Part shown: positions 11,138 to 53,962 of the stretch, piece after piece
Position numbering within the stretch: the first letter of the stretch is position 1
How the letters are laid out: each line of letters starts with the position of its first letter
IMG/VR virus record: IMGVR_UViG_3300044802_000092
Span: 1 to 58,252 of that record
DNA: 58,252 nucleotides
Source: a virus
Lineage: Duplodnaviria > Caudoviricetes
Direction: 5' to 3' (one strand)
The notes under the pieces: generated by a model
The model's input: only the letters and a program-made list of their open reading frames with translations
Told to the model about the DNA's origin: nothing
The model's database searches: none
Position numbers and translations under genes: made by a program

Positions 11138-11139
11138 AG

Positions 11140-11739
11140 CTAGTTTCCTTTTGAAACTGTAAACGTTCGGGTGGGGGCTGTGTCCGGAATTATGGTTATC
11201 GGAACCGCCAGAATTGAAGGTATCGGATAGGTGCGCTGTATTTCCCGTCTGAGCACAAACGGGAAGTCTATCCGATACTGCCACCTAGACTTGATAACAA
11301 GCGGAACAGGCTGCAGATCACCAACGCCAGCCATCCCCATACCATAGTCCCGTAGATATTCCACATTTTGGGCGACCGCCATATTATCCCGCATAAGCGT
11401 CACCAACGCTTCCGCCCGGCCGCTTACCCCCAGGTCGTAAAGCGAACAAAGCAGATGGATTTCTTCATGCCGCTGCATTCCCATTGCCCCAATTCCCCCG
11501 TTTCCAGCGGGGTCGAACCCCAGGTACGGGTAAGCATCAGCGGGCCGCATCGAATGGCGGAAGGCCATCCAGGCCTCCCCTGCATCCGGAATATCCGGGG
11601 GTTCTGACTGAAACGCGGGGCGAACGAGCGGGCCGGGAAGGGTGGAAAGGGCCACGAGCCAGGGCTGCAAAATAGCGTTCAGGGCCGCACCTGTCGGCGG
11701 CGGGACGCTGTCTATCGGTTGAATGACAGGCCCTGACAT
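11140..11739 (-). CDS. Tail terminator / neck protein
   Basis: LPGxLVRPxxQxEPPxIP...WMAF; immediately upstream of sheath. Confidence 0.75.
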   Translation of the reverse strand: MSGPVIQPIDSVPPPTGAALNAILQPWLVALSTLPGPLVRPAFQSEPPDIPDAGEAWMAFRHSMRPADAYPYLGFDPAGNGGIGAMGMQRHEEIHLLCSLYDLGVSGRAEALVTLMRDNMAVAQNVEYLRDYGMGMAGVGDLQPVPLVIKSRWQYRIDFPFVLRREIQRTYPIPSILAVPITIIPDTAPTRTFTVSKGN

Positions 11740-11743
11740 TGTT

Positions 11744-12319
11744 TTAGCTGCTCCTAATTACGTACTTGATTGCGTTGCGCAACTGGCCGGTATCGATCAA
11801 AGGCTTGGCATTAGTTATTCCGGCAGTCAATGCCTCAGATGAAACTGGTTGCGGAAGGTCCGCACGCCGCGCTAATTCTACCGCCGCACCTTTTCGCCCC
11901 TTCTTGCCCCGGCGCGCCCGCGCTCTGAGGGTAGCGTCCGACAGGGCAGGAGGAATTCCTGAGTTGATTTTTGCCCTCACCTTGTTTTGGACCATGAGGC
12001 CCAACCGGTGGAACCCCCGATCCACCGCGTCCGTGTCGCCCTTCAATGCGTTCCGGCCAATTCCAAGCAACCGAGTGGTTATGTCGTACTTGGCCTCCTC
12101 AATGGAGGGTTTCAAAAACGGCCGGGGCGGAACATGTGCGGCAGGACAGCCGTTTTCGTGGATATAGGCCAGGAAGGCGTTATTGACAACACCCTTCTCG
12201 CCGGGCTCAGGCTTGCGTAAGGCCTGTTCCGCCGGGACGCCTACAAGAACATGTTGCTTGGTCAGCCGCTCCAGGGTCTGCATCAACTTGGGCAGCCTGG
12301 AATTGCGGGCAACTGTCAC
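11744..12319 (-). CDS. Neck / tail completion protein
   Basis: VLVGVP, NAxLAYIHExG, PPRPFL, KPLIDTGQLRNAI; GTG start overlapping upstream stop. Confidence 0.8.
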   Translation of the reverse strand: MTVARNSRLPKLMQTLERLTKQHVLVGVPAEQALRKPEPGEKGVVNNAFLAYIHENGCPAAHVPPRPFLKPSIEEAKYDITTRLLGIGRNALKGDTDAVDRGFHRLGLMVQNKVRAKINSGIPPALSDATLRARARRGKKGRKGAAVELARRADLPQPVSSEALTAGITNAKPLIDTGQLRNAIKYVIRSS

Positions 12320-32623: not shown

Positions 32624-32654
32624 TGTGGTATTCTCCTCAGCGATGTGAAGCAAG

Positions 32655-35195: not shown

Positions 35196-37448
35196 ATGTC
35201 CAACTCTTCTTCGCCTGACGTATTGGAAACCGTGCAGTGGGCACACCATAATGCTTTTACAATGGTCCCCCTTCTCCCTCGCACCAAGACCCCAATCTCT
35301 GGCGAGTACGCAAAACCCGGATACCTCTCTCCTCCCCCTTCTTATTGGTCCACTCACGACTGCGGCGTGGGGCTCGTCACCGGTCCGCAGTGTTCCTCTC
35401 CCGTGGACATCGACATAGACGGGGGGGATGCCGCCCGGCACTTTGCACGGCTGTTTCTTCCCTCAACTACGGCCGTGTTCGGCCGCAAGTCCAACCCGGC
35501 GTCCCATTGCCTCTACCTCGTGAAAGAACCGGCCTTCTCCAAGTTTGCTTTGTCTGACCCGGTCGACCGCTCTTGCATCATTGAGGCCCGAGGCGATGGC
35601 GGGCACCAAACCGCGCTCCCAGGCTCTATCCACCCCTCAGGTGAACAGATAGCGTGGGCGGCTTCTCCCCCTTCCTCTTTATCTCTTGTCGCCTCAGAGG
35701 CCCTCATCCGCGCTGTGCGCAAGGTGGCTCTCGCGGTCATCGTTTGCCGCCATATCTGGCAGCCGGGCTACCACAATGAGCCCTGTAAACACCTGTCCGG
35801 CATGTTCTACTACTCCGATTGGCCTGAGGCGGAGGCCGTGTCGTTCGTTCAAGCCGTTACCGAGTACCTCGGCGATACGGACTCTTCCCGCCTCCCCACC
35901 GTCCACCTCGCGTATGCGCGGGCAGAAAAAGGTCGCAAGATTACGGCGGGAGGAAAACTGCGCGAGCAGGTGGGCGAGCAGCTAGTGTCGGCCATTTTTT
36001 CCCTGATGGCCAGCCCCGGCCAGGAAGCTTTCACCAACAAACTGGCCGCGTACAACGAGCGTTTTGCTATTGTGAACTATGATGGCAACTTTCTCGTTGC
36101 TCAAACCGACACCCGGCCCGGCACTTTGCCTCAATTCATCCGCCGGAGCGACTTTCTTGCGTTCAACGCCCGCGACACGGTGTCCGGTCCGGACGGCAAG
36201 CTCCGGCGCTTCCCGGAGCTGTGGCTGGCTTCCCCTCGCGCCTGCAGATACCCGGTCGTCGACATGTTGCCGGGCGACGACGGGGCTTCCGGGGTGTTCA
36301 ACCTGTGGACAGGGTTCGCCATTCCCCCCGGCGAAGGTGAGTGTACGGCCTGGTTACAACTATGCCGTGTGGTGTGCGGAACGTCTGAGGGAATGGAGTG
36401 GCTGTTGGCCTGGCTGGCGGACATCGTGAACTCCCCTCAAGTAAAGCCGGGCACGGCGCCCGTGATAGTCGGCGAGCCGGGAGCAGGAAAGACCTCGCTG
36501 GTGGAGTATTTCGGTGAAATACTGGGAGAATATTACGTCCCGGTCACCCAGGACACCCATCTGGTAGGCAACTTCAACGCCCATCGGGCTACGGCCCTCC
36601 TCATTCACTCTGAAGAGGCCCTGTACGGCGGCGAGAAGAAACACCGGGGCATCATTAAGTCTCTCATCACCGACCGGTACCAGATGCTTGAGCGCAAGGG
36701 GGTAGACGCCAAGCGCATCAACAGCTTCTCGCGCCTCATTCTGTCATCTAACAACGCCAACCCCGCCCCAATTGAGCCGGGGGACAGGCGCTTTACCATT
36801 TTCGACATGGGTAAACTCAAGGCTTCCGAGGCGCTTCTTGCCGCTGTGCGGGACGAGCGGGCCAATAAAAACGGGCAGGCCGCACTACACCAGTTCCTAT
36901 CCCGGCTGTCCGCCCTTCCCGATTTATCCAGGGTTTCCCTCAAGACCGAAGCGGGGTTGGGCATAGCCGCCCGCAACTTAGAACCGCTTGATGTATTATG
37001 GTTGAACCTTCTCAACCAGGGCGAAGTGTTCCCAATGGAACTTAAGTGGTGCCAGCGCCCGGCGCCCACCGACGCCTCCGGGGACGAAGAAGAATTTCGC
37101 TGGCCTGAAGTTATCTCTACCGTTGCGCTGTACCGAATGTTTGAGATAAAACTAAAGAATCGGTGCCCCCCCGCTTGGGTGGCCATCGACATAGTCAAAA
37201 AACATTACTTCGGCGGGGGGGCCAAAGAAAAACACGCCCGTTTCGCGGTCCCTCCCTATGATGACATTACCATCGACAAGGCATGGCGGCAGGGACTGGG
37301 CGTCCGCCAGCGGGCGGTGGAGATCCCTCCGCTAGTGGCGTGCCGCCGCATGTTTGAAGAGTACGTCGGACAACCCGTCAATTGGGGTTCGGACGAACTA
37401 ATGCCAGACCTTCCACCTGCGAAAACCAACTACAAGCCGTCGTACTGA
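35196..37448 (+). CDS. Bifunctional primase-polymerase fused to SF3-like helicase
   Basis: VDIDID, SHxxY, QTxxPGSIHPSGE primase motifs; GEPGAGKT Walker A; AGGAGG RBS. Confidence 0.88.
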   Translation: MSNSSSPDVLETVQWAHHNAFTMVPLLPRTKTPISGEYAKPGYLSPPPSYWSTHDCGVGLVTGPQCSSPVDIDIDGGDAARHFARLFLPSTTAVFGRKSNPASHCLYLVKEPAFSKFALSDPVDRSCIIEARGDGGHQTALPGSIHPSGEQIAWAASPPSSLSLVASEALIRAVRKVALAVIVCRHIWQPGYHNEPCKHLSGMFYYSDWPEAEAVSFVQAVTEYLGDTDSSRLPTVHLAYARAEKGRKITAGGKLREQVGEQLVSAIFSLMASPGQEAFTNKLAAYNERFAIVNYDGNFLVAQTDTRPGTLPQFIRRSDFLAFNARDTVSGPDGKLRRFPELWLASPRACRYPVVDMLPGDDGASGVFNLWTGFAIPPGEGECTAWLQLCRVVCGTSEGMEWLLAWLADIVNSPQVKPGTAPVIVGEPGAGKTSLVEYFGEILGEYYVPVTQDTHLVGNFNAHRATALLIHSEEALYGGEKKHRGIIKSLITDRYQMLERKGVDAKRINSFSRLILSSNNANPAPIEPGDRRFTIFDMGKLKASEALLAAVRDERANKNGQAALHQFLSRLSALPDLSRVSLKTEAGLGIAARNLEPLDVLWLNLLNQGEVFPMELKWCQRPAPTDASGDEEEFRWPEVISTVALYRMFEIKLKNRCPPAWVAIDIVKKHYFGGGAKEKHARFAVPPYDDITIDKAWRQGLGVRQRAVEIPPLVACRRMFEEYVGQPVNWGSDELMPDLPPAKTNYKPSY

Positions 37449-38346: not shown

Positions 38347-39444
38347 ATGCAGTACGCAGCAGGCAAGGTTATTCAGGGCAAAAAGTGGCGAAAGACCATG
38401 TCCGGCATGGGCGATAGGTGGGTGGAACCCTTCGCCGGGGGACTGGGGGCATATCAACAAATAGCGCCGTCGTACGGGCGCGCTTTGATTTCCGACCTTT
38501 CGCCCGTTATACTAATGTGGGAGGCGGTGAGGAACGGGTGGCGGCCGGATGTAAGCACTCCTTTGACCAAAGAGTCCCACGCCGTTTACAAGCAGATCGC
38601 ATTCGGGGATGACCCGACACCTCAAGCGGTTTATGCTGTACACACTGGAAGTTTTAGGGGCAGCGCTACTGGAAGCTGGAGCCCGTCCGGCCCCCGGAGG
38701 GGAAGCAATTCCGGGTTGGCTAGACTGGAGGCGGTTGCGGATGTATTGCGCTCCGTGCCCACCGAAATCCGCCAGTGTGACTACAAAGATACACTATCTG
38801 ACTGTGGGCAGGGGGATGTAGTCTATTTGGACCCCCCATATTCTGCTTTAAATTATTGGATTAGGCCGCCGCTCTGTTCAGGCTTTGACGTTAACGAGAT
38901 GTTAAATATGGCTGAGGCCGCTGTGCTCCGGGGGGCGGTTGTGTTCATCAGCCACTACAACAATGAACTGGATACCAATAAGTGGCGGGCGGTTGAGTTA
39001 CACCTAGACCAGAGCCCCATGTTTGACGGGCAGAACCTTTCGGCCAAGCGCATTAACGAGTATTTGTACGTGGACATCCGCACCTTTTACCGGTTTGATT
39101 TTCGAGGCGACGATTCCCGCGTGAAAACGAACCGCCGGGCGGCGCAAACCTCTGTTAGACAAGATTTGTTGGCCCTCACCGGCGGGCGGTGTGAGGCCAC
39201 GGGGGAACTGTATCCCAAGTACCAGTTGGATTTGGTACACGGGCCGGGGTTTGAGTTTGTTAAAATGGGGGATTCCGATCCGGACTACTGTTATCTTGTA
39301 AACAAACTATTCCACGCAGCGCTGGACGCCCCGGAATCAGGAGTCACAATGTTGGACGGGATGTGGGTTGTACCAGAATGTTTTCGAGATCAAGAATGGG
39401 CGAAGAATACTCACGGAATGCGGGCGAAACGGTGCCGGAAATAG
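38347..39444 (+). CDS. DNA adenine methyltransferase (Dam/D12-like) fused to HNH-like domain
   Basis: YxxGK, VEPFAGG motif I, VYLDPPY motif IV; C-terminal RCEATG...LDLVH...LFHAALD. Confidence 0.75.
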   Translation: MQYAAGKVIQGKKWRKTMSGMGDRWVEPFAGGLGAYQQIAPSYGRALISDLSPVILMWEAVRNGWRPDVSTPLTKESHAVYKQIAFGDDPTPQAVYAVHTGSFRGSATGSWSPSGPRRGSNSGLARLEAVADVLRSVPTEIRQCDYKDTLSDCGQGDVVYLDPPYSALNYWIRPPLCSGFDVNEMLNMAEAAVLRGAVVFISHYNNELDTNKWRAVELHLDQSPMFDGQNLSAKRINEYLYVDIRTFYRFDFRGDDSRVKTNRRAAQTSVRQDLLALTGGRCEATGELYPKYQLDLVHGPGFEFVKMGDSDPDYCYLVNKLFHAALDAPESGVTMLDGMWVVPECFRDQEWAKNTHGMRAKRCRK

Positions 39445-41567: not shown

Positions 41568-42125
41568 ATGGCAAAAAAACCCTCTACTCTGATAGATTTC
41601 AACACTTTACCCCAAAGTTTATTCGAGCGAAATAATCCCACCAAAAACATAGCGGCCGAACTCCTAGAACTGTCTAGACACCTTCAAGTTCTGCGCGCTC
41701 ACATGTTTGAGGCTGCCCGGTCAGGCTCCAACTCGTTAGCCCGGTCTTTCGTGACGCTCCATCAACTTAACGAAAACATGCAACTTCTTGTTAAGCAATT
41801 CAACAAGTTGATGGAACACTACAAAACCGTAGCCGTTCCGGACGTGCTTGACATGGCGGGGGTGACAAACGTGCCGTTGGCCGAGGGCTTCCGGGTGGGA
41901 ACTTCCAGCCGGTTGTGGGCTTCATTTCAGGTCGAAAATCAAGATGAAGGCTTTGAGTGGCTACGGCGCAATGGGATGGGAGACCTTATCAAGTTAACCG
42001 TAAACACTCAAACCTTATCCAGTGCAATCTCGCAACACCTAGACGAATATAGTGAGGAGCCGCCCCCTGAACTAATAAAAGTAACAGTCACGCAAAACAC
42101 TTCAGTAACTCGTACAAAGAAATAG
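41568..42125 (+). CDS. Conserved phage replication-module protein
   Basis: FEWLRxNGMGDLIKxTVNxQTLS motif; AAGGAG RBS. Confidence 0.75.
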   Translation: MAKKPSTLIDFNTLPQSLFERNNPTKNIAAELLELSRHLQVLRAHMFEAARSGSNSLARSFVTLHQLNENMQLLVKQFNKLMEHYKTVAVPDVLDMAGVTNVPLAEGFRVGTSSRLWASFQVENQDEGFEWLRRNGMGDLIKLTVNTQTLSSAISQHLDEYSEEPPPELIKVTVTQNTSVTRTKK

Positions 42126-42134
42126 GCAAACCCC

Positions 42135-43016
42135 ATGGCAAAGTCCCCCACAGCAGCTGCCCGCAGCACTCCAAACCTTCCCGCCACAACGGCCCCCTCA
42201 CACCTGGCACTGACCGACGAGGTGCCCGAGTTCATGTCAGGTGATGCGGGAAAAGGCCTGGAATCGGTCGGGGCTGAAGACGTTTCAGTTCCTCGTATCA
42301 AACTGATGCAAGGAACCTCCCCAGAACTGACGACGTTTGATGACTTACGGCAGGGCGATTTCTGGCATACGGCTAACGAAGTGAACCTGGGCCAAAAGTT
42401 CCTTGCCGTGCCCGTATACCGCGACAAGCGTTACATCCTGTGGCGGCCTCAAGATTCCGGCGGGGGCATCCTGGCCCGCGCGGACGACGGCAAAACTTGG
42501 ATTCCGGCCAACACTTCATTTGAAGTAAAGTTGGATGCAAAACAGGGAGGAAAAACTGTTACTTGGACCACCGGGGACACCGTGGAAAACTCCGGGCTAG
42601 CCCTGTGGGGAACCTCCGACCCTGAAGACTCTTCGTCCCCGCCCGCCGCCACTCTCATGTACAACTTCGTTCTGGTCTTTCCAGAGCACCCTGAGCTGGC
42701 CCCGGCAATTCTGACATTTCAGCGCTCAACCGTGGGGGTTGCTCGAAAGTTCTTAGGTACCCTCAAAACCCGCAACCGCCCGATCTTTGGTCAGGTTTAC
42801 GAGTTTTGCTCAGTAGGAGCGACCAACAAAGACGGGAAGCCGTTTAGGTCGATCGTTCCGCGCGCTGCGGGCCTGATTGCGGATAAGGCCCTTTACGACA
42901 GGTATAAGGGGATGTACGAAACCTTCGCAAAATCGGCACTTCAAATCCGTGACGTCGAAAGCTTGCAGGTGGAAGCCGAAGAAGAAACCGCAACCGTTGG
43001 CCGGCCGGAGTATTGA
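42135..43016 (+). CDS. Putative ssDNA-binding / replication accessory protein
   Basis: GLExVxxEDVxVPRIKLMQxxSPE; acidic C-terminal tail; position upstream of DNA polymerase. Confidence 0.6.
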   Translation: MAKSPTAAARSTPNLPATTAPSHLALTDEVPEFMSGDAGKGLESVGAEDVSVPRIKLMQGTSPELTTFDDLRQGDFWHTANEVNLGQKFLAVPVYRDKRYILWRPQDSGGGILARADDGKTWIPANTSFEVKLDAKQGGKTVTWTTGDTVENSGLALWGTSDPEDSSSPPAATLMYNFVLVFPEHPELAPAILTFQRSTVGVARKFLGTLKTRNRPIFGQVYEFCSVGATNKDGKPFRSIVPRAAGLIADKALYDRYKGMYETFAKSALQIRDVESLQVEAEEETATVGRPEY

Positions 43017-43819: not shown

Positions 43820-45670
43820 ATGTCAAGCCGGTTTGACTACAGTGATGTGTTAGTTGAGGTGTTTAACCGGCTTGACCGGGCGTCTGAGGTGGTGGTTGAC
43901 GTTGAGACTTCTGGGTTAAGCCCATTGCGCAATCACATCGTGGGGTATGCGCTGTGTTTCGGCCCCGCCCCTCAAGATTCCTACTACTTGCCCGTGCGGC
44001 ATGCGCCGGGCGGCAACTTTACCGATATCCCCGCCCCCCAAACCGCAGATGGGTGGGATGGTACAACCCCGCTGTGGGAAAGACAGCTGCTGGACAGACT
44101 AAACCGGCAAAACCTCAGGGTTGTGGGCCACAACTTGAATTTCGACTTGAAGATGATGTGGCGGGCTGGATACCAGTGTCTGCGCTCTAGATATGAAGAC
44201 ACACAGCTCAACGCGGCTCTGCTCAACGAATGGCAGGGCAAGTTTTCCCTAAAGGCCTGCGCTGGCATAGCGGGGGTACAGGCAAAACTATCAGACGAAA
44301 TCTCGGCCCACATCCAAGCCCAGTTCCCCGACGAAAATCTCCCTGAGAAGGGAATAATGGCCCACTACTGGCGGCTAAACGGGGCGGACCCCGTGGCGGT
44401 CGACTACGCAAGGGGAGACGGTACGACCACGTGGCAGCTAGCTCAGTGGCAACGGGAAAGACTCGAAAAAGAGCAGCTATTAAAGGTTTGGGATATTGAG
44501 TGCCGGTTGATTCCCGTGCTAGTTCGACAAACCATGTTCGGGGTGCGGATCGACGAGGAGCGGCTGCACGGGCTGCAGACGGAGATAACTGCCAAGATCG
44601 ACGGGTTGATGTCAAAGTTTCCGGAAGGGTTCAACGTGCGGTCCCCCGGATGTGTCCGGGCCTGGTGTGAAGCCCACGGCAACACGGATTGGCCCCTTAC
44701 CCCCAAGAAACAACAGCCTTCGTTTCCGGAGAGCTGGCTAGAAACCCATGATGCGGGCCGGGCGATAGTAGAACTCCGGCAGATGCAGACTTTAATGAGC
44801 AGTTTCATCCGGCCGATGATGGAAACCCACCTGTTTAAAGGTAGAGTCCACACAACGTTCAATCAACTGAGAGGGGACGACTACGGCACTATTACAGGAA
44901 GGTTGTCGTCCAGTGACCCCAACCTTCAACAAATTCCGCACCATTCCAACCCGGCTTTGGGAGCGCTTTTCCGTTCCATATTCGTCCCCGACGAGGGGAA
45001 GATGTGGGCGGAGCGGGACTACAGCCAGGCTGAGCCCAGGCTACTTGCTTATTATTCCCGGTGTGCCGTTTTGTTAGACGATTATCGAAACAACCCGAAG
45101 GCCGACGCTCACGCCGCTGTAGCGCGGGCCACGGGCCTGGACAGGCAAACCGGTAAGCGCGTCAATCAAACGCTGCTCACCGGGGGAGGAAAGGGCGTTC
45201 TAACAACCAAATACAAGATAACCCCGGAAGACGCAAAAAAGGTGTGGAACGACTATTTCGAACGGCTCCCCGAAATTAAAACGCTCCAAACCGAATCCCG
45301 GCTAAAAATGCGTCGGCGGGGTTACGTGCGCACCCTGCTCGGCCGGAAGTGCCGGTTGCTTGACTTCAACAAAGCTTACGTGTCCATGAACCGGTTGTTA
45401 CAGGGGGGCAACGCGGACATAACCAAGTACAAGATGGTTCAGGTTGACGAGTATCTGGCCAGCGAGGGGCGGCCAATCGAGGTACTGCTCAGCATTCATG
45501 ACTCCCTCAACTTCCAGTTTTCTGAAGAATATAGACACATTTACGAGCGGTGCGGCGAGATCATGGCCGACTTCTCCTCCGGCCAGTTGATCGAGCTGGA
45601 TGTACCGATGAAAACCGATGCGGGTGAGGGGAAGAACTGGGCGGAAGCCACCTACGGAGAAAAGAAGTAA
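43820..45670 (+). CDS. Family A DNA polymerase (3'-5' exonuclease plus polymerase)
   Basis: VDVETSG, HNLNFD, TGRLSSSDPNLQQIP, DYSQAEPR, QGGNADI, SIHDS. Confidence 0.93.
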   Translation: MSSRFDYSDVLVEVFNRLDRASEVVVDVETSGLSPLRNHIVGYALCFGPAPQDSYYLPVRHAPGGNFTDIPAPQTADGWDGTTPLWERQLLDRLNRQNLRVVGHNLNFDLKMMWRAGYQCLRSRYEDTQLNAALLNEWQGKFSLKACAGIAGVQAKLSDEISAHIQAQFPDENLPEKGIMAHYWRLNGADPVAVDYARGDGTTTWQLAQWQRERLEKEQLLKVWDIECRLIPVLVRQTMFGVRIDEERLHGLQTEITAKIDGLMSKFPEGFNVRSPGCVRAWCEAHGNTDWPLTPKKQQPSFPESWLETHDAGRAIVELRQMQTLMSSFIRPMMETHLFKGRVHTTFNQLRGDDYGTITGRLSSSDPNLQQIPHHSNPALGALFRSIFVPDEGKMWAERDYSQAEPRLLAYYSRCAVLLDDYRNNPKADAHAAVARATGLDRQTGKRVNQTLLTGGGKGVLTTKYKITPEDAKKVWNDYFERLPEIKTLQTESRLKMRRRGYVRTLLGRKCRLLDFNKAYVSMNRLLQGGNADITKYKMVQVDEYLASEGRPIEVLLSIHDSLNFQFSEEYRHIYERCGEIMADFSSGQLIELDVPMKTDAGEGKNWAEATYGEKK

Positions 45671-45674
45671 TCCC

Positions 45675-46172
45675 ATGCTCGAAACAGACCTGCAGTCGGC
45701 CGTTGTAAAGTCCGTAATAACCGCAGGCGGGTCCGCACACAAGTTGAGCAACCGGTTTATTACCGGAGTGGCGGACCTGTTAATCAAGATTCCGGAGTTT
45801 GAGGCCTTCTGCCTGGAGGTGAAGTTTGGGCGGTACACCCCACCCCTCAGGGTTAAGGACGTGTCTGTGCCCCTCAAGACCCCCCAGTGGCGGTTCTTGA
45901 GGAATTACTGGCGGGCGGGCATGCCTACGGGGGTGTTGAGCTTTGCGGGACATAACTGTCAAAGCATGTGGGTTACGGTCCTGTGGGCCAACGACTTCCG
46001 CCGTTTTCGGACGGCGGACACGGAACCAGATTGGCTGTTTAAGATTCCGGCAGAGCGGTACGTCAAACTAGACCCCCGAACCCCGGAGTTCGTCGCTCTT
46101 CTCAAACAATCCCTCACCGCCCTTAATCAAACAACAGGAGGCCTGCACAATGTCCGTGATGGAGCTGATTGA
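45675..46172 (+). CDS. PD-(D/E)xK nuclease (VRR-NUC / Holliday junction resolvase-like)
   Basis: ETDLQ...GVADLL...LEVK...Q. Confidence 0.7.
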   Translation: MLETDLQSAVVKSVITAGGSAHKLSNRFITGVADLLIKIPEFEAFCLEVKFGRYTPPLRVKDVSVPLKTPQWRFLRNYWRAGMPTGVLSFAGHNCQSMWVTVLWANDFRRFRTADTEPDWLFKIPAERYVKLDPRTPEFVALLKQSLTALNQTTGGLHNVRDGAD

Positions 46173-46494
46173 AGAAAAAGCTAAAACACACGGGGACTTC
46201 ACCGACCAAGCTCAAATGGCGCAGGGCCTGAAGTCTGTCTTACATGCCTCCCGCCGTTGGGACGGCATGACCGCTGTCCAGCGGGAGGCGGCAGAAATGA
46301 TTTTACACAAGCTGGCGCGGGCATGCAGTGGGGACCCCTGGGCGCGGGACCATTGGCAGGACATCGCGGGGTACGCTACGATGGTGGCCGACCGCAGTCC
46401 ATGCGCGCACGCCGCAGAGATATACGGCGGCAGCGGCGGCGGCACAGCGGTGTGTCAGGGATGCGCCTCTCAGGGTGATGGAGTAAAGTTATGA
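46150..46494 (+). CDS. DUF6378-like all-alpha protein (possible dNTP pyrophosphohydrolase)
   Basis: THGDF, EAxEMIxHKLAR, GDP...DHWxDIAGYA. Confidence 0.75.
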   Translation: MSVMELIEEKAKTHGDFTDQAQMAQGLKSVLHASRRWDGMTAVQREAAEMILHKLARACSGDPWARDHWQDIAGYATMVADRSPCAHAAEIYGGSGGGTAVCQGCASQGDGVKL

Positions 46495-47564
46495 GTGTGT
46501 TAACTGACCTGTGTATCCCCGGTCGAGCATCGTTTATCGTCGGCGGGCAGTTTGGCAGTGAAGGAAAAGGGGCGGCGGCGGCGTTTTTGGCAACACGCCT
46601 AGCCACAGCCGGGATGAAATTCAACCTGCACACCACTAACGCCGGAGCGCAGGCTGGACATACTAGCATTCATATGGGGAAAACCCGAGTCACCAACTTC
46701 TTGCCTACCGCAGCAATTGTTGCGGCGGATCACGGTCCAGAGTTCCTGTCAACAATCTATCTCAACGCCGGGGCAATCATCAACCCAGACGCGTTGCTGG
46801 CAGAAGCGAGGGAGTTTATACCTCAATTTATGGATGGGAAGTTTTTTATTCACCCCAACGCCGCCGTTATTACCGAGGATTGTGTTGCGGTCGAAAGGAG
46901 TTCTACGTCTCCTGCAACAGCCATTTCTTCAACCCGCAAGGGGGTGGGTGAGGCCCTGGTCCGCAAGGTTTCCCGATGTGGGAATATTGCCAGCAATGTC
47001 GAAAGTTTGAAGCCGTTCATAGCAAACATAGACCTTAATCGGCAGCTGCGGGCCTGGACCTCCGTTTTAATTGAGGTCCCCCAGGGTCTGGGTTTGAGCC
47101 TAGATTCCCAGTTCTACCCCTACTGCACCAGCAGAAACTGTACGGTAGAAAAGGGGATGGACGACGCCCACATTCACCCCCACTTTTACGGGAACACCAT
47201 GCTCGTTCTTCGAACTTACCCCATCCGAGTTGGTAGTTTGGAAGGGCACTCTTCGGGAGGTTGTTACCCAGATCAGCGCGAAATATCCTGGGAGGAACTC
47301 GGTAGAAAGCCGGAATTGACTACAGTGACAAAGCGACAGCGGCGGGTCTTCACGTTTTCTATGACACAGGCCCGCGAGGCGATACGGCGGCTGCGCCCCA
47401 CCGTGATTTTTCTGACTTTTTGCGACTATCTGAAGGACAAGGTGGAGGCATATCGAATGGCTAAATCCTTGGCCCTTATGATTCAAACCGAGGGGCTGCC
47501 CGAGGCGGAAATCTATGGGGCATGGGGGCCAACAACCACGGACGTAACTGGGCTTGCTGTGTAA
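46491..47564 (+). CDS. purZ: Adenylosuccinate-synthetase homolog, PurZ0-like (2-aminoadenine biosynthesis)
   Basis: GGQFGSEGKG (Ser in place of the PurA catalytic Asp), QAGHT, YPYCTSR, TYPIRVG, ELTTVTKRxRR, LTFCD. Confidence 0.8.
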   Translation: MSVLTDLCIPGRASFIVGGQFGSEGKGAAAAFLATRLATAGMKFNLHTTNAGAQAGHTSIHMGKTRVTNFLPTAAIVAADHGPEFLSTIYLNAGAIINPDALLAEAREFIPQFMDGKFFIHPNAAVITEDCVAVERSSTSPATAISSTRKGVGEALVRKVSRCGNIASNVESLKPFIANIDLNRQLRAWTSVLIEVPQGLGLSLDSQFYPYCTSRNCTVEKGMDDAHIHPHFYGNTMLVLRTYPIRVGSLEGHSSGGCYPDQREISWEELGRKPELTTVTKRQRRVFTFSMTQAREAIRRLRPTVIFLTFCDYLKDKVEAYRMAKSLALMIQTEGLPEAEIYGAWGPTTTDVTGLAV

Positions 47565-47567
47565 GAC

Positions 47568-47617
47568 TTGACAAGAACGGGCTTGCGTGGTAGGGTGGAC
47601 GCTGTCTAAACTGTCAA
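47568..47617 (+). promoter_or_regulatory. Sigma70-like promoter plus AACTGTCAA box
   Basis: TTGACA-17-TAGGGT; box at 47609-47617. Confidence 0.65.
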
Positions 47618-47629
47618 CATAGGTGAACC

Positions 47630-47956
47630 ATGTCAGACATAGGGTACAATGTTCCCACCTTTACCATAACGACCGAAGTTCCCGAAAGTGTTATACATTA
47701 TCGGGAAGGACTACAAAAGTTCTTTGCCGGGATGGCCTTCAAGTTGCACGTAAATGCACACAAGCCTCCGCCGAAGATCGAAGAGCTTCCCACCCTGATG
47801 CTGCGCCTAATGGGCGAGGTGGGGGAGTTGATCGAACAGCTGATGAAAGACGACCGGAGCCCGAACGCCGCACATGAGGCGTTCGACACCGCCAATTTCG
47901 CGTTCTTGGTCTATTTGGCCCTGTTGACGCGGGATAACCCAGTCAAACTTCCATAA
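47630..47956 (+). CDS. MazG-like dNTP pyrophosphohydrolase, copy 1
   Basis: KLxVNxHK, LMGEVGEL, EAFDTANFA (ExxE...ExxD). Confidence 0.7.
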   Translation: MSDIGYNVPTFTITTEVPESVIHYREGLQKFFAGMAFKLHVNAHKPPPKIEELPTLMLRLMGEVGELIEQLMKDDRSPNAAHEAFDTANFAFLVYLALLTRDNPVKLP

Positions 47957-48024
47957 CTCTTTGGTGGGGGCGACGTTTCGCCCCTTCCCCTTTGTGTCGC
48001 TGATTTAACCAACGGAGTAGTTCT

Positions 48025-48381
48025 GTGTTGAATAAGACCCTCTCCCGGCCCTTAGCCGTCAACCTGCCTGTTTCAATCGAACACTACCGGCCCGAATTGG
48101 AGTCGTTTATAGCAGGCATGTTTCACAAACTTGCCGTGAACAGCCATAAGGATGCCCCCGCAAAACCCCAAATTCCAGAGTTGATGTTTCGAATGATGGG
48201 GGAAATCGGTGAACTGGTACAGCAAATACTTGCTGACAAATTTGATCCTAACTCCCTTCAAGAAGCCTTCGACGTTTCAAACTTCGCTTTCCTCACATAT
48301 TTGGCCCTGTTGAGGGACGGCGTAAAAGACCTCCGGACAACAGACCTCTTGCCAAACCTCCAAGCCAAGACGAGCACCTGA
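48025..48381 (+). CDS. MazG-like dNTP pyrophosphohydrolase, copy 2
   Basis: KLAVNSHK, MMGEIGEL, EAFDVSNFAFLTYLALL; clear paralog of previous gene. Confidence 0.7.
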   Translation: MLNKTLSRPLAVNLPVSIEHYRPELESFIAGMFHKLAVNSHKDAPAKPQIPELMFRMMGEIGELVQQILADKFDPNSLQEAFDVSNFAFLTYLALLRDGVKDLRTTDLLPNLQAKTST

Positions 48382-48445
48382 TGGCTGACCTTTTCGACAG
48401 CCACTAACCCTTTCATTCTTTCCCCTCACCCCGTAGGTTCCAACC

Positions 48446-50116
48446 ATGCCTTCTCTCAAACTTTCTGAACAACTCCATGCAGACAAATATAGGCAAACCG
48501 GCGAGACCTTTCGCAGCGCCTGTAGCCGGGTAGCCGATGCTCTCAAAGACGATGAGGGACACTATTTTGCGTTTCGGGAAATATTGAGGGAAGGCAGGTT
48601 TTCACCTCCCGGCCGAGTGTGGTCCGCCATCGGGGCGGCTAGAACTGCGACGGCCTACAACTGTTTTGTATCAAGGACCATCCCAGACAGCATAGCGGGA
48701 ATTATGGGGGCAGCCGTGGAGGCGGCCGAGACCCTCAGACTCGGTGGAGGCATTGGTTACGACTTTTCTACGCTGCGCCCTGCGGGGGAACGCATTGCCA
48801 GCCTGGATAGCAAGGCCAGCGGCCCAGTTTCGTTTATGGGTGTGTTCCATGCAGTGAATTCCACCATTCTCGGGGCAGGAAACCGCTCGGCTGCCCAAAT
48901 GGGGGTCTTGAGGGTGGGCCATCCAGACATTCTGGAGTTTGTACGGGCCAAACAGAACACCTCCGCTCTGTCCACCTTTAATCTGTCGGTAGCTGTAACA
49001 GATGCATTTATGGTGGCGGTAAAAGAAGACTTGCCGTTTCAGCTGACGTGGGGGGGCCGCACCTTCGGCACCGTTTCCGCCCGTAATCTGTGGGTGGAAA
49101 TCATGAGAGCCACTTGGGATTATGGGGAACCGGGAGTTTTGTTTATTGATACCATAAACAAAATGAACAACCTGTGGTACTGCGAGACGATCGATGCGAC
49201 TAATCCTTGCGGTGAACAGCCCTTGCCCTCGCACGGTGCGTGCCTCTTGGGAAGCTTCAACCTACCTGCCTACCTAGGATGGGCCAACAACACGTGGGTG
49301 TTCGATTTTACGCAGTTTAAAGCCGACATTCCCGTTGTAGTGCGCGCCATGGATAACGTGGTTGACCGTTCCCGATACCCCCTTCCTGAGCAGGAGAAAG
49401 AAGCTAAATCCAAGCGCCGAATGGGCCTCGGCGTGATGGGTTTAGCCAATGCGGTTGAAGCGTTGGGTCACCCTTACGGCTCTGAACTGTTCAAGGTTAT
49501 GACAGCTAGCATATTGACGGTTCTCCGGGATGGTTGCTATGACACCAGTACAGCCTTGGCTAAAGAAAAAGGTCCGTTCGAACTGTGGGATAAAGACAAC
49601 TATTGTAAGGGAGAGTTCATCCGGACACTTCCTCCGGAAATTCTTGAAAAGATGCGGGATTGCGGAATGAGGAACTCACATCTCCTTTCAATTGCCCCCA
49701 CCGGCTCAATCAGCCTAGTGAGCGATAATATATCTAGCGGCATCGAGCCGGTGTATGCGCTGGTCCAACGCCGAAAGGTGCGCATGGTAGAAGGCACAGT
49801 CTCGGCAGAGGTGGTGGACTATGGTAAGGCTCGGCTGGGAGTTGAGGGCAAGACGGCCGATCAATGTACTCTCGACGACCACTTGGGGGTGCTATTATTA
49901 GCACAAAAGTACACCGACAGCGCCATATCCAAGACAATAAATGTGGGGGACGACATAGGTTGGGAGGAATTCCAAAATGTGTACATGCGGGCTTGGGAAG
50001 GTGGCGCGAAGGGATGCACCACGTTCAGGGCCGCTGGAAAACGTGAAGGCATTATCAAAGACGCCGGAACGCCTGAACCCAAGAGTTGTGCAATAGATGG
50101 AAGTTGTGCGGACTGA
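48446..50116 (+). CDS. nrdJ: Ribonucleotide reductase, class II (B12-dependent) type
   Basis: NCFV, TNPCGEQPL, CLLGS, SIAPTG, AISKT; no small subunit gene nearby. Confidence 0.85.
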   Translation: MPSLKLSEQLHADKYRQTGETFRSACSRVADALKDDEGHYFAFREILREGRFSPPGRVWSAIGAARTATAYNCFVSRTIPDSIAGIMGAAVEAAETLRLGGGIGYDFSTLRPAGERIASLDSKASGPVSFMGVFHAVNSTILGAGNRSAAQMGVLRVGHPDILEFVRAKQNTSALSTFNLSVAVTDAFMVAVKEDLPFQLTWGGRTFGTVSARNLWVEIMRATWDYGEPGVLFIDTINKMNNLWYCETIDATNPCGEQPLPSHGACLLGSFNLPAYLGWANNTWVFDFTQFKADIPVVVRAMDNVVDRSRYPLPEQEKEAKSKRRMGLGVMGLANAVEALGHPYGSELFKVMTASILTVLRDGCYDTSTALAKEKGPFELWDKDNYCKGEFIRTLPPEILEKMRDCGMRNSHLLSIAPTGSISLVSDNISSGIEPVYALVQRRKVRMVEGTVSAEVVDYGKARLGVEGKTADQCTLDDHLGVLLLAQKYTDSAISKTINVGDDIGWEEFQNVYMRAWEGGAKGCTTFRAAGKREGIIKDAGTPEPKSCAIDGSCAD

Positions 50117-51527
50117 CATGGCCGACTGGCAGAAGTGGAACCTGAGACACCGAAAGTACGGCCCGCTTCCGTGGGCCGTACAAGCCGAAGCCATGCGGCA
50201 AGCCAACGGCCGGAAAAAATATGGGTTCTGGCTGGAACAGGGCCTAGGGAAAACCCCCCTCGCTCTCAACGAATGGATAAACTCTGGGGTGGACACCCTG
50301 GTGGTGGTCGCCCCTCAATCCTTCAAGATTGACTGGACACAGGCGCCCGCCGAGTGGGGGTTGGAAGGTGTACATACCGGGTATTGGCCGAAGCACCCAT
50401 TACCGAAGCCGGGCCAGCGCAGCGTCTATGCTATCAACTATGAGGCTATCCGATCCAGCGGATTTGAGGCGATATCCGCGCTGATGTCCCGGCAATCCTG
50501 TTTCCTGGTGTTCGACGAAACGAGCAGTATTTCCAATTTCCTATCTCAAACTTCCAATGCAGCTATCCGGCTGGCTCAATATGCGAAGTTCGTGAGGGGG
50601 TTGAACGGGACGCCGATTACCCGCAATGCCTCAGACTTATGGGCACAGCTGCGTGTTCTGGGGGCGCTGAATGGGTATAACGCCTATGCGTTTAAGACCA
50701 AATATTGTAAAATGGGCGGATTCATGGGGCGCCAGGTAGTCGGCATTCAATATGAAGACCAACTATCCGAAATAGTCAATAAGTACGCATTTAGGGCACT
50801 TAAAACCGACTGGCGGGCCGACCTTCCCCTTCAAATATTCCACGCCCCTGTAATGATTGAAATGACTAAACATCAAAAACAGTTATATAACCGAATGTTG
50901 GAGGAGTTTGGAATTGAGGTAAACGGCCGTGAAATCAGTGTTAGTCTAATCCTAAACCGGGCGGCGAAACTTCAGCAGCTGGCTTCGGGAATTATTACAG
51001 ACGGCAGTGTTACCGAGGTTGTCGTCCCATACAAACAAAACCCGAAAATCCATGCGGTGCGGACCATCCACGATTCTGGTCCTAATAAAACCCTTGTCAC
51101 ATATACCTATCGGGAGTCTGGGAGCCAGCTTTTTGCTGCGGCAACGGAATGGGGCTTAAACCCTGCGTGGTTTAAGGGGGGACTAACCAGCGAAGAACAG
51201 TCCAAAGAGAAGCGCCGGTTCAATGAAGACCCCGAGTGCCGGATGTTAATCGGGCAACAGTCAGCGTGCTGCATGGGTCACACACTGTTGGGTGGTGAGG
51301 GGGATGACCGCTGTTGCCGCACGATTTTCTATGAAAACAGCTATAGCCTGCGTGACCGGCTCCAAATGCAGGATAGAATACATCGGGGCGAGGCGGACTT
51401 GCCCTGCAGCTACTTCGACCTTTGCGCCGCACCCATCGATTTGATCCCGATATCGGCACTGAGGGCGAAGAAACAGGTAGCTGATCTTGTCGATGAAATG
51501 GTAGTAGCTTTACAACAGCGCGTATGA
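50097..51527 (+). CDS. SNF2-family helicase
   Basis: EQGLGKT, INYE, FDETS, LNGTP, DLWAQL, QMQDRIHR. Confidence 0.85.
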   Translation: MEVVRTDMADWQKWNLRHRKYGPLPWAVQAEAMRQANGRKKYGFWLEQGLGKTPLALNEWINSGVDTLVVVAPQSFKIDWTQAPAEWGLEGVHTGYWPKHPLPKPGQRSVYAINYEAIRSSGFEAISALMSRQSCFLVFDETSSISNFLSQTSNAAIRLAQYAKFVRGLNGTPITRNASDLWAQLRVLGALNGYNAYAFKTKYCKMGGFMGRQVVGIQYEDQLSEIVNKYAFRALKTDWRADLPLQIFHAPVMIEMTKHQKQLYNRMLEEFGIEVNGREISVSLILNRAAKLQQLASGIITDGSVTEVVVPYKQNPKIHAVRTIHDSGPNKTLVTYTYRESGSQLFAAATEWGLNPAWFKGGLTSEEQSKEKRRFNEDPECRMLIGQQSACCMGHTLLGGEGDDRCCRTIFYENSYSLRDRLQMQDRIHRGEADLPCSYFDLCAAPIDLIPISALRAKKQVADLVDEMVVALQQRV

Positions 51528-52102
51528 AAGAGGGGAAACCGATGACAGATTTTATTGACAGTGAAGGGACAGTAAGGACATACCCAGTCCCGGCCCGTAA
51601 TTATCTCAAGTTTGACGAGGCTCTAGAAATACTTCGTATTGCCGCGTTGAAAAGGGACAACGAACTGCAAAGTCTTAAACAGCCTTACACCGAAGTAGCA
51701 AAATATCTGGAGGAGCAGAATTTCCCACATGAAGTGCGGTTGTCAATATCTCCTAAACGCATTTATGCCGTAATAACAGGCATGCCTTCGGATGTTATGG
51801 GTTTCTACGAAGGCCTAGCTACAGGGTTGGGTAGAAGGTTACTAGAAAAAGCCATACATAGAGACGGGGTGCCTAGCGTGGCGCGGGGGGGTTACTCCGA
51901 GTCACTGAGCTGGACATGGGAGAGGTGTGGGGCGAATTCACATACAACGATAGGTCTAATTGTTACTTTTCCAAGAAATGGTATATCCGACGCCTTAATG
52001 TTGCCCGTGCCCCGAGTACATACAGACTATGAGTATAAGTTCATGTTGCGAGAGCAATATAACACCCTGACAGACAAAGACGAAGGGGGCGTGACAGCCT
52101 GA
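51524..52102 (+). CDS. Hypothetical protein
   Basis: 192-aa in-operon ORF. Confidence 0.65.
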   Translation: MKEGKPMTDFIDSEGTVRTYPVPARNYLKFDEALEILRIAALKRDNELQSLKQPYTEVAKYLEEQNFPHEVRLSISPKRIYAVITGMPSDVMGFYEGLATGLGRRLLEKAIHRDGVPSVARGGYSESLSWTWERCGANSHTTIGLIVTFPRNGISDALMLPVPRVHTDYEYKFMLREQYNTLTDKDEGGVTA

Positions 52103-52169: not shown

Positions 52170-52424
52170 ATGCTGAAGACCTTGATAGACTGGGGCCGGA
52201 CATGGTTTGACCGGTCATACACCCACACCGAAGAAGAACATCTAGTGGAGTTATGGCTAGGGCGGGGGTGGATAATTGCGGGCGTTTACTCCTCTATCCT
52301 TGAGGCAACGGCGGCGTTTAAGCGGCTGGCGGCGAAAAATCCTGGGGACAGACTTAGAATAAGCAGCACCAAAGTGGTATACCGGGTGCTGCATGTGGAA
52401 AAACATGAATATAGGATGGCGTAA
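52170..52424 (+). CDS. Hypothetical protein
   Basis: AAGGAG RBS, ATG 52170; stop overlaps next start. Confidence 0.65.
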   Translation: MLKTLIDWGRTWFDRSYTHTEEEHLVELWLGRGWIIAGVYSSILEATAAFKRLAAKNPGDRLRISSTKVVYRVLHVEKHEYRMA

Positions 52425-53962
52425 TGTCACGGCCCGTGTGGAGTCCCCAGCAGCTAGCAATCTTTGACTGGGTAAAGAAAGGTAGGGGCAACGCCTTTGT
52501 GGAGGCGGTGGCGGGGGCGGGAAAGACCACCACGTTGGTAGAGGTGTGTGCGTTGTTGCAAGGGCAAAGCGCGGCTTTTGCGGCGTTCAACAAAAACATT
52601 GCTGACGAAATCGGTGAACGCGTGCGGGCGCGGGGATGTTCAAGGGTGTTCACTGGCACTTTTCATAAGTTTGGGTTGGCCATTTGGCGCGGCACCTATC
52701 CGAAAGTCCAAGCCGGACCGGAAGCGGCCAAAGAAAAATCAAAGCTAGTCAACACCAAACTAAACACCCCCAAAAATCTTGTGTCCGTACTTGACAACCT
52801 AGTGGGCCAGGCCAAGCAGCGCGGCATAGGGACTCCGGGGCTGCCAATTGAGGATGCCGCATTGTGGCTGGCCATAATCGAGCATTTCGGGATAGATGAG
52901 GACCTTCCCGCATCTGTAAACGTAGACACCGTAATAGAAAGGGCCATGGCCGCCCTCAGACTGCACGTTGAAATGAAAGAATTGTTAGATTTCAACGATA
53001 TGGTATATATGCCCGTGCATGACGATATGCGGGGATTTCAAAACGATTGGCTGATGGTCGACGAGTGTCAAGACCTTAACGGATCGCGGCGCATGCTAGC
53101 TCGTCAGATGTTGCGTCCGGGGGGCCGGGCGATATTCGTTGGAGATAGATTTCAGGCGATTTTTGGGTTCAACGGAGCCGACGCCGACGCGGTCAACCAG
53201 CTTACTGCAGATTTTAATTGCGCCCGGCTGCCTCTCACCATTACTTACCGCTGCCCGAAAAAGGTCGTGGAGCAGGCCCAGGCGTACGTCCCTCACATTG
53301 AGGCCGCCAAATCCGCCCCTGAGGGAAAGGTGTCAGTTATCTCTCAGGCTGAACTATATAAGACTCAATTCGTCCCTGGGGAAGACGCCGTTCTTTGCCG
53401 CAATACGCGGCCCCTGGTGCGATTGGCTTATATTCTCATCGGGCGAGGGGTGCCCGCTTATGTTGAGGGAAGGGACATTGGTAAAGGTCTGCTAAAACTT
53501 GTCGCTAGGTTCGACCAGCCCTCATCCCTCAACGCAATGCTGGTCCGTCTAAGTGCATATTTAAGCCAGGAAACGGTAAAATTGCGGGCCGCAAATAAAG
53601 AAATGCAGGCCGCAGCGTTGGAAGACCGCGTGGAAACCCTTGAGGCAATCGCAGAAGAGTGTACCACAGTCGGGGGCCTCAAGGATCGCATTACCTCTTT
53701 GTTTGAGGATGGAGACCGGGCTTTGGGCCAGCGGCCGGTGCTTTCGACCGTACACAAGGCAAAGGGCCGCGAATGGTCGCGGGTGTTCGTGTTAGGTTAC
53801 GATCTATATATGCCGAGTTGTTACGCAACTAAAGACTGGGAAAAAGAGCAGGAAAACAACCTCGTATATGTAGCGTACACACGAGCTAAACGGGAACTGG
53901 TACTGGTAGAGGGGGAGAGGAAAAATGGTCACGGGGAAAATCTACGGAAAGTCAACCATTAA
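52424..53962 (+). CDS. UvrD/Rep-family SF1 helicase
   Basis: AVAGAGKTT, VDECQD, VGDxxQAIFGFxGA, STVHKAKGRE, YVAYTRA. Confidence 0.9.
   Translation: MSRPVWSPQQLAIFDWVKKGRGNAFVEAVAGAGKTTTLVEVCALLQGQSAAFAAFNKNIADEIGERVRARGCSRVFTGTFHKFGLAIWRGTYPKVQAGPEAAKEKSKLVNTKLNTPKNLVSVLDNLVGQAKQRGIGTPGLPIEDAALWLAIIEHFGIDEDLPASVNVDTVIERAMAALRLHVEMKELLDFNDMVYMPVHDDMRGFQNDWLMVDECQDLNGSRRMLARQMLRPGGRAIFVGDRFQAIFGFNGADADAVNQLTADFNCARLPLTITYRCPKKVVEQAQAYVPHIEAAKSAPEGKVSVISQAELYKTQFVPGEDAVLCRNTRPLVRLAYILIGRGVPAYVEGRDIGKGLLKLVARFDQPSSLNAMLVRLSAYLSQETVKLRAANKEMQAAALEDRVETLEAIAEECTTVGGLKDRITSLFEDGDRALGQRPVLSTVHKAKGREWSRVFVLGYDLYMPSCYATKDWEKEQENNLVYVAYTRAKRELVLVEGERKNGHGENLRKVNH

Follow-up and report, generated by a model that had tools for sequence, protein, structure and literature searches.

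The 58,252-b record IMGVR_UViG_3300044802_000092 of IMG/VR (Duplodnaviria; Caudoviricetes), which was analysed over its entire length and is referred to as the window in the following, contains a PurZ-clade Z-cluster that is syntenic with the Z-cluster of a cultured phage, but DatZ is missing, MazZ-2 is duplicated and the ribonucleotide reductase (RNR) NrdJ occupies the slot of DatZ. Judged from its genes, this phage most likely carries 2-aminoadenine (Z) in place of adenine. Among the three genes that are taken to make up the “Z-cluster” is DatZ, which in S-2L is regarded as the main adenine-exclusion factor. The window can be read as a Z-DNA module that can do without DatZ and in which dATP would be removed by MazZ-2 pyrophosphohydrolysis, kept out by the preference of the polymerase, or both, and we give this reading a probability of roughly 0.55. 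The record is linear and has a CheckV completeness estimate of 98%. A preliminary description of the window, made from the sequence alone, had listed a Pol A, a nuclease, a DUF6378-like gene, a PurA homolog, two MazG-like genes and a class II RNR, and all of them lie on the plus strand where it had placed them. The observation itself is thus confirmed, and its interpretation is partly supported.

The central gene of the cluster (46491-47564, plus strand) encodes a homologue of the succinoaminodeoxyadenylate synthase PurZ (PF00709, E 1e-28; phrog_1211, E 6e-55). The best NCBIfam model is PurZ (NF038379) with 200.1 bits, compared with 153.5 bits for the archaeal PurA model PRK04293, and matches to PDB entries fall from PurZ of phiVC8 (151 bits) and S-2L (115) to Pyrococcus PurA (87) and the PurZ0 of phage Archimedes (7vf6, 73). 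Of the homologues from cultured phages, that of the Ochrobactrum phage vB_OspP_OH (OH in the following), a PurZ, is the closest, with 40% identity. Among the matches listed from a collection of 5.8 billion proteins there are 119 other homologues, each 48-61% identical, and contigs of 50-69 kb carry about 20 of them; outside IMG/VR, the two nearest relatives among these listed matches are P0002 (61% identity) and P0004 (57%). The preliminary description had named the cluster PurZ0-like and had proposed a phylogeny with PurA, PurZ and PurZ0, which groups the enzyme with PurZ and apart from PurZ0. In a first maximum-likelihood (ML) tree, in which E. coli PurA served as outgroup and 80 rows were kept after removal of 12 near-duplicates and one 241-aa fragment, the window enzyme pairs with that of the 60-kb uncultured relative L003 (support 99). 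This pair lies in a 14-row clade (99) within a 25-row clade including phage OH (96), which is in turn nested in a 37-row clade with all six PurZ references (SH-aLRT 96), whereas the four PurZ0 references group separately with Streptomyces phage Hiyaa (100). A second ML tree with 48 rows agrees, with 100/99 for the 14-row subclade and 100/100 against the PurZ0 outgroup.

The residues of the enzyme point in the same direction, with two exceptions. The motifs noted in the preliminary description are present, namely GSEGKG at residues 22-27, TxxD (as T-F-C-D) at residues 309-312 and, aligned to S14 of VpPurZ and to the catalytic Asp of E. coli PurA, Ser23. Phe21, Ser23 and Thr277 match F12, S14 and T262 of VpPurZ in the residue map, the roles of which we take from bioRxiv 10.1101/2025.10.22.683976. 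Moreover, the enzyme has the YPDQ loop, which is absent in PurZ0, and its Phe310/Tyr313 match the stacking pair F295/Y298 of VpPurZ, where PurZ0 has Met/Gln. Both features, together with the absence of DutZ, DmtZ and DUF5664 genes, speak against an assignment to the PurZ0 family as well. What stands of the designation “PurZ0-like” are two residues, Glu24 in the P-loop and Asp312, which are real PurA/PurZ0-like states and do not occur in the six ATP-using PurZ references: these have Thr at the former position, and Asn or Gln at the latter, which corresponds to position 297 of VpPurZ and to D333 of E. coli PurA. Position 312 is Asp in 12 and Asn in 15 of 27 rows (the window and L003-L029) and Asp in none of the six references, and its state flips again within the OH-related clade of the 48-row tree; the PurZ of OH itself differs from that of the window in having GSTGKG and Asn. 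An Asp at the D333 position is reportedly linked to the use of GTP, and a GTP preference of the window enzyme is possible. Taken together, the alignments and trees describe an enzyme that is a PurZ by its descent and has a nucleotide pocket of mosaic character.

Two genes directly downstream of purZ encode MazG-like proteins, as already described, and their family profile leads to the MazG-like superfamily of all-alpha hydrolases, although no Pfam family passes on either protein alone. Paralogue 1 (47630-47956, plus strand) is the more diverged copy, and paralogue 2 (48025-48381, plus strand, GTG start) is the orthologue of the single copy in L003 (E 1e-42); the two match each other at E 2e-27. 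In blastp searches they reach E 7e-10 (paralogue 1) and 1e-8 with gp33 of the Ochrobactrum phage, which has been named a MazZ-2 in the same study that defined this type and its four conserved acidic residues (PMC8342488). An alignment of 21 family members matches the MazZ-2 prototype p26 of phiVC8 with an hhalign probability of 97.4 (E 1.2e-11), and the family profile reaches E 5.8e-12 with AF_0060 (PDB 2p06) and E 0.0018 with a MazG-related protein. The AF2 model of paralogue 1 (pLDDT 88.7) consists of three long helices, and in Foldseek its top match is 2p06, followed by other all-alpha NTP pyrophosphohydrolases, the match being weak (E 0.05, TM 0.59/0.70). With AF_0060, the MazG-related 2yxh and DCTPP1/RS21-C6 the window proteins have in common the fold and the metal-binding pattern E-x-x-E...E-x-x-D. 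No variation occurs at E63, E66, E83, D86 and N89 across the 21 sequences, both window copies included, so that by sequence both paralogues are MazZ-2-type NTP pyrophosphohydrolases with intact catalytic acidic residues.

In a tree of MazZ-2 the two window copies and the single copy of L003 form one clade (95/90), in which paralogue 2 pairs with L003 (93/86) and paralogue 1 stands outside, with the MazZ-2 of L027 as sister (100/99). According to this placement, either the two copies go back to an old duplication or copy 1 has a high rate of evolution. The remaining members of the PurZ subclade to which the window belongs carry a different subtype, and it is the window-type MazZ-2 that is found in 12 of the 13 DatZ-less PurZ-clade loci seen. 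As a side observation, in L027 (11182-12054, plus strand) the MazZ-2 domain and a C-terminal extension of some 180 aa are fused in a 291-aa open reading frame (ORF), which is followed by DatZ.

The preliminary description had found no recognisable HD-domain dATPase in the cluster, and five independent searches, in each of which the positive controls matched, were empty as well. PF01966 (HD) gave 0 candidates in the six frames of the window at E<=1, PF13023 (HD_3) and PF12917 (YfbR-like) gave 0 matches in the window, the DatZ proteins of S-2L and the Ochrobactrum phage produced off-frame noise in blastp against all stop-to-stop ORFs (best E 0.038), and a hidden Markov model (HMM) of DatZ built from the sequences of 26 relatives had 0 matches in the window at E<=1. 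The intergenic gaps of the cluster measure 64-68 b and therefore leave no room for a DatZ remnant. The L003 record (60,481 b, 100% complete) is also negative for HD_3 and YfbR-like proteins. Furthermore, dUTPase/DutZ and NDT/DmtZ are absent from the window (six frames) and from L003, with phage Archimedes as positive control, and neither DUF5664 (PF18909) nor DUF550/MazZ-1 (PF04447) has a six-frame match in the window or in L003, again with matching controls. These are the families that matter in other phages. DutZ is present in all 98 PurZ0 genomes, with DmtZ as a further genomic partner of PurZ0, DutZ and DUF5664 hydrolyse dATP and dGTP in PurZ0 phages that lack DatZ, and a precedent for dATP removal by a pyrophosphohydrolase is the DUF550 protein of SH-Ab 15497 (PMC12884076). 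Of purZ phages the same paper says that they “mostly” encode DatZ, so that DatZ-less exceptions may already be tabulated in its supplements.

Among the closest known systems is the Z-cluster of phage OH (NC_070933), which comprises PurZ, MazZ-2 and DatZ. Window and OH have the order PrimPol...Pam3 gp33/gp34-like-PolA-nuclease-DUF6378-PurZ-MazZ-2-[...]-SNF2 in common, their MazZ-2 proteins are homologous (E 7e-10) and their polymerases belong to the same PolA lineage without insertions 2 and 3 of the phiVC8 enzyme. In contrast to the window, OH has kept DatZ (gp35), has one MazZ-2 and no RNR in a genome of 41 kb, and contains no DUF3383 sheath match among the top sheath matches. This synteny, which is complete apart from DatZ, also bears on the possibility that the cluster makes no Z-DNA at all, with the PurA homologue serving in ordinary or altered purine salvage and a genome containing adenine. 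A PurZ score below the curated cut-off, the PurA-like states of Glu24 and Asp312 and the missing DatZ would fit such a role. However, the catalytic Asp has given way to Ser, which is also the case in all 147 phage PurZ/PurZ0 sequences that have been reported (PMC12884076), and the placement inside the PurZ clade is firm in two trees, which together with the synteny makes this alternative very unlikely.

The loss of DatZ is not restricted to the window. In most of the clade a MazZ-2 gene, recognised with an iterated HMM, directly follows purZ. Among the 27 loci L003-L029, 25 have enough downstream sequence to be scored, and 23 of these show the order PurZ-MazZ-2-DatZ-SNF2; the exceptions are L003 and L026. 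In the window the MazZ-2 genes take their usual position directly downstream of purZ, but NrdJ comes next instead of datZ, and L003, with the order PurZ-MazZ-2-NrdJ-109 aa-SNF2, likewise carries NrdJ in the slot in which the relatives have DatZ. In L026 this slot is filled by a 161-aa ORF (11418-11900, plus strand) with weak matches to endonuclease VII/HNH proteins, and the respective record (G004), which is complete with 64 kb, contains no HD_3 and has neighbouring genes for a dUTPase and an RNR at another place. In addition, 14 further loci with a window-type MazZ-2 were found on viral contigs, four of which keep DatZ while ten have the order PurZ-MazZ-2-SNF2 without it. Three of these ten records are 100% complete at about 44 kb, and no HD_3, dUTPase, RNR or DUF3383 sheath was found in them. 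The DatZ state could be scored for 41 of the 48 rows of the second PurZ tree (29 with and 12 without DatZ) and requires at least four changes, with four to five across the bootstrap trees. Going by these contigs, DatZ loss is recurrent among uncultured PurZ phages and DatZ may be more widely dispensable. Outside the PurZ clade HD_3 was detected in one of 50 further Ser-type PurA-family records and in 0 of 18 with at least 90% completeness, which fits the published PurZ0 biology. A tandem duplication of MazZ-2 was considered as a requirement for the loss of DatZ and was discarded, as L003 and the ~44-kb DatZ-less phages have a single copy.

The gene in the DatZ slot of the window (48446-50116, plus strand) encodes a class II, adenosylcobalamin-dependent RNR, NrdJ (TIGR02504, 484.5 bits with a cut-off of 399.95; PF02867, E 7e-104), and its position raises the question whether the RNR itself is tied to the loss of DatZ. 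NrdJ might limit the supply of dATP, e.g., by a low reduction of ADP when MazZ-2 drains dGTP, or DatZ and RNR might be incompatible. The window, L003 and L026, which stand for two independent losses of DatZ in the tree, each have an RNR large subunit, whereas the records of DatZ-containing relatives have none (0/20; 0/10 at >=90% completeness), and four further RNR-bearing PurZ-family records (L036, L048, L049, L067) are without HD_3. These four are, however, 26-67% complete, so that the co-occurrence amounts to two independent events in near-complete genomes. Moreover, the three complete DatZ-less genomes of about 44 kb have no RNR of any kind, from which it follows that an RNR is not required for the loss of DatZ, and NrdJ is thereby weakened as a replacement for DatZ. 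A causal role of the RNR is accordingly improbable, and the pattern is an unexplained association, not a mechanism. As an observation in its own right, an RNR large subunit and DatZ/HD_3 never occur together among the PurZ-family viral records examined (7 RNR-bearing, 20 with DatZ).

Upstream of DUF6378 and purZ, a nuclease and a DNA polymerase complete the cluster. The polymerase (43820-45670, plus strand) is of family A and has a 3'-5' exonuclease domain (PF00476, E 3e-56; PF01612). With the NCBIfam models it reaches 292 bits for DpoZ_1, which is below the cut-off of 500, and 251 bits for Pol I, and it is 68% identical to the PolA of L003 and 33% to that of the Ochrobactrum phage. With insertions 1-3 of the phiVC8 DpoZ taken as defined in PMC8599892, insertion 1 is present. 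Judged by its sequence, the protein belongs to a PurZ-linked PolA lineage and, strictly speaking, does not qualify as a DpoZ of the phiVC8 type.

In the pathway that we propose, MazZ-2 would convert dGTP to dGMP, PurZ would condense dGMP with aspartate, PurB and kinases of the host would complete the synthesis of dZTP, and the phage PolA would copy the genome. For the exclusion of dATP, either MazZ-2 would also hydrolyse dATP to dAMP, or the polymerase would prefer dZTP, or both, since no gene for DatZ, Dut, NDT, DUF550 or DUF5664 is present. That dATP exclusion relies on the all-alpha hydrolases or on the polymerase had already been put forward in the preliminary description, and it is plausible in that it fits the comparative data. 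The tandem copies of MazZ-2 may divide the dGTP and dATP jobs between them, although the duplication is no requirement because DatZ-less relatives have a single copy.

The strongest competitor of this reading is that dATP is not removed at all, i.e., that MazZ-2 is specific for dGTP and adenine is excluded by the polymerase only, or that the genome is a mixture of Z and A. MazZ-type enzymes have been described as dGTP hydrolases (PMC8342488, PMC12884076), the DpoZ of phiVC8 on its own has a strong preference for Z, favouring dZTP by one to two orders of magnitude, with DatZ said to “may act in complement” to it (PMC8599892), and partial clusters transplanted into E. coli still yielded some Z (PMC8342488). 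Furthermore, a PolA gene lies next to purZ in every DatZ-less PurZ-clade locus seen. However, the PolA of the window is without two of the three phiVC8-DpoZ insertions, and the presence of the window-type MazZ-2 in nearly all DatZ-less loci hints at a change in MazZ-2, which renders exclusion by the polymerase only, or a mixed genome, doubtful.

Several points weigh against removal of dATP by MazZ-2 or its exclusion by the polymerase in a DatZ-less Z-DNA module. The PolA of the window has neither insertion 2 (helix O) nor insertion 3 (fingers tip), and the protein is no nearer to the DpoZ of phiVC8 (28% identity) than to Klenow (30%). MazZ is described as a dGTP hydrolase (PMC12884076), and a limited search of the literature found no biochemistry of MazZ-2, including activity on dATP. 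A phage RNR would, if anything, raise the supply of dADP. The score of the PurZ homologue with NF038379 lies below the curated cut-off of 300 bits. Asp312 suggests GTP rather than ATP/dATP as donor, which would remove the dATP-consuming side activity described for the PurZ of S-2L. Finally, the record is linear and its estimated completeness falls short of 100%.

DatZ could also have been replaced by an unrecognised, non-homologous protein that removes dATP, for which DUF6378, a 192-aa protein downstream of the cluster or another ORF without a family would be candidates. The DUF6378 gene (46150-46494, plus strand) lies directly upstream of purZ (PF19905, 28.4 bits with a cut-off of 27.1; the Atlas agrees), and a DUF6378 gene always adjoins purZ. 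An iterated HMM of the family finds 23 ORFs, one each in 21 viral loci and in the Ochrobactrum phage and S-2L loci, and a protein of Burkholderia phage Bm1 matches PF19905 as well. The AF2 model is helical (pLDDT 82.5), and relatives in the PDB were found neither by sequence nor by Foldseek (E<=0.001) or VIA. However, DUF6378 occurs equally in clusters with and without DatZ, and no acidic metal-binding pairs are found among its invariant residues. A function as DUF5664-like hydrolase of dATP and dGTP was rejected, the hhalign probability being 0.2 with the N-terminal domain of the SH-Ab 15497 protein as target, which is a single sequence, so that DUF6378 and DUF5664 may still be distant kin; the best VIA-wide Z score of 6.9 equals the background for helical bundles and was not accepted as fold kinship either.

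The 192-aa protein (51524-52102, plus strand) belongs to no known family and, among the fetched loci, is common only to the window and the DatZ-less L003. A word-based search with it found only itself, whereas a full HMMER profile recovered at least 128 representatives of about 160-200 aa in a large library; the family has no relative in Pfam, PHROG or the PDB. Within about 7 kb of purZ it was not found in the ~44-kb DatZ-less phages, and with 128 representatives in the library but no PDB or PHROG family to connect it to, it was set aside as a hidden dATPase. A hidden replacement of DatZ is thus quite unlikely. Independently of this question, the DUF6378-family ORF of S-2L (MW334946; L002 17664-17966, minus strand of the locus, HMM E 4e-36) lies opposite the annotated hypothetical protein S2L_16 (locus 17376-17975, plus strand), and the annotation at S2L_16 may be on the wrong strand.

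The window has features in common with two further types of described Z-clusters. The clusters of phiVC8, SH-Ab 15497 and S-2L consist of PurZ, MazZ-1 or MazZ-2, and DatZ, along with DpoZ or PrimPol. Like these, the window has the YPDQ loop and the Phe/Tyr pair (VpPurZ 295/298), a MazG-like gene directly downstream of purZ and a PolA gene adjoining the cluster. It differs from them in the absence of DatZ, DUF550 and DUF5664, in a PolA without DpoZ insertions 2 and 3, and in having Asp for Asn/Gln at VpPurZ position 297 and Glu for Thr at position 15. Moreover, its tail is of the sheath type, in contrast to the described sets, for which Siphoviridae and Podoviridae have been reported (PMC8342488). 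The PurZ0 actinophages, e.g., the Gordonia phages Ghobes and Archimedes and Arthrobacter phage Wayne, carry PurZ0 and DutZ with or without DmtZ and DUF5664-1. With these the window has in common that DatZ is absent, that the P-loop reads GSE(G/A)KG and that Asp stands at the guanine-contacting position, and also, for the window by analogy only, that dATP would be removed by pyrophosphohydrolysis instead of triphosphohydrolysis. Unlike the window enzyme, the PurZ0 enzymes form a clade of their own (100), are without the YPDQ loop and have Met/Gln instead of Phe/Tyr; in the window a MazG-like enzyme is present instead of dUTPase/NDT, and the PolA lineage is a different one (22% identity).

The repeated natural loss of DatZ represents a direct test of what is required for keeping A out of DNA, and the window, where MazZ-2 is duplicated and an RNR fills the DatZ slot, is the richest DatZ-less case seen. 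It singles out MazZ-2 as the enzyme of interest for the exclusion of dATP, and it documents flips, within one clade, at the Asp/Asn position by which GTP- and ATP-using enzymes were believed to differ. A further-reaching version of our reading assumes that the window-type MazZ-2 is a bifunctional dATP/dGTP pyrophosphohydrolase which makes DatZ redundant and which, with a PurZ-clade enzyme that would use GTP in view of its guanine-binding Asp and its P-loop Glu, forms a minimal, RNR-linked pathway of two enzymes, PurZ and MazZ-2. This combination is speculative and, on the present comparisons, unlikely to hold in all its parts. If it were true, a bifunctional MazZ-2 would explain at least four independent losses of DatZ in PolA-bearing PurZ phages, the ATP/GTP donor switch would be labile and not the clean PurZ0-to-PurZ step that is now assumed, and purine dNTPs would be controlled from the supply side in a large uncultured group of phages of about 55-68 kb. 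For synthetic biology, a two-gene pathway of purZ and one hydrolase would then be simpler than the current triad.

With the virion genes of the window, the range of PurZ clusters comes to include phages from soil or peat that have a sheath. These genes occupy the minus-strand half and encode a DUF3383-type tail sheath, tube, tape measure, baseplate J, hub, portal, capsid and terminase, whereas the plus-strand half holds the replication and nucleotide-metabolism block, with all genes of the module on the plus strand. The sheath gene (9653-11284, minus strand; PF11863, E 2e-110; phrog_205) is 46% identical to the sheaths of Burkholderia myophages. Because of this gene the phage is assigned a contractile tail, as in the preliminary description, and the genes for baseplate J, hub, tape measure and tube agree with this. 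The L003 record has a sheath as well, and within the group of ~55-68-kb phages the sheath is confirmed for these two only. A limited search found no published description of a PurZ cluster in a sheath-bearing phage.

The remaining genes of the replication block frame the cluster on both sides. Upstream lie a PrimPol fused to a D5-like helicase domain (35196-37448, plus strand; PF09250, PF19263; phrog_1156) and a pair of Pam3 gp33-like and gp34-like genes (41568-43016, plus strand; PF23984, E 3e-23; PF23977, E 6e-38), the latter being a conserved upstream part of the replication module that is present in most relatives. Pam3 was considered as a relative among Z-phages and dismissed, since the paper on Pam1-5 does not contain the term “adenylosuccinate” and the common genes are only structural and replication genes. 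The two listed runs that hold the window sequence are labelled as peat metagenome, and the host need not be a cyanobacterium despite the Pam3-like genes. Between polymerase and DUF6378, a 184-aa ORF (45618-46172, plus strand) encodes a PD-(D/E)xK-like nuclease of the Hjc/VRR-NUC-like type according to the Atlas model rows Hjc and VRR_NUC; it has no Pfam, PHROG or NCBIfam match, and homologues occupy the same position in 18 of the 27 loci L003-L029. The Atlas record begins at residue 20, and the true start is probably at 45675. Downstream, an SNF2-family helicase gene (50097-51527, plus strand; phrog_62, E 3e-69), which comes after DatZ or MazZ-2 in the relatives, forms the conserved border of the module, and a UvrD-like helicase gene (52424-53962, plus strand) lies within the same block.

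A few further observations concern the window as a whole. No tRNA genes were found in it. Neither PHROG nor Pfam has a match for a 1240-aa ORF (19061-22783, minus strand) in the block of head genes or for a 541-aa ORF (31028-32653, minus strand) between the terminase genes. Despite the predicted 2-aminoadenine genome, a gene similar to D12-class N6-adenine DNA methyltransferases is present (38347-39444, plus strand; PF02086, E 4e-8; phrog_56). Finally, the C-terminal domain of the portal protein (26600-28681, minus strand; PF06381) matches PF18823 “InPase” at residues 565-656 (E 3e-18), and its PHROG matches include minor head, DNA-pilot and DarB-like families, so that this domain may be an ejected or packaged enzymatic domain.

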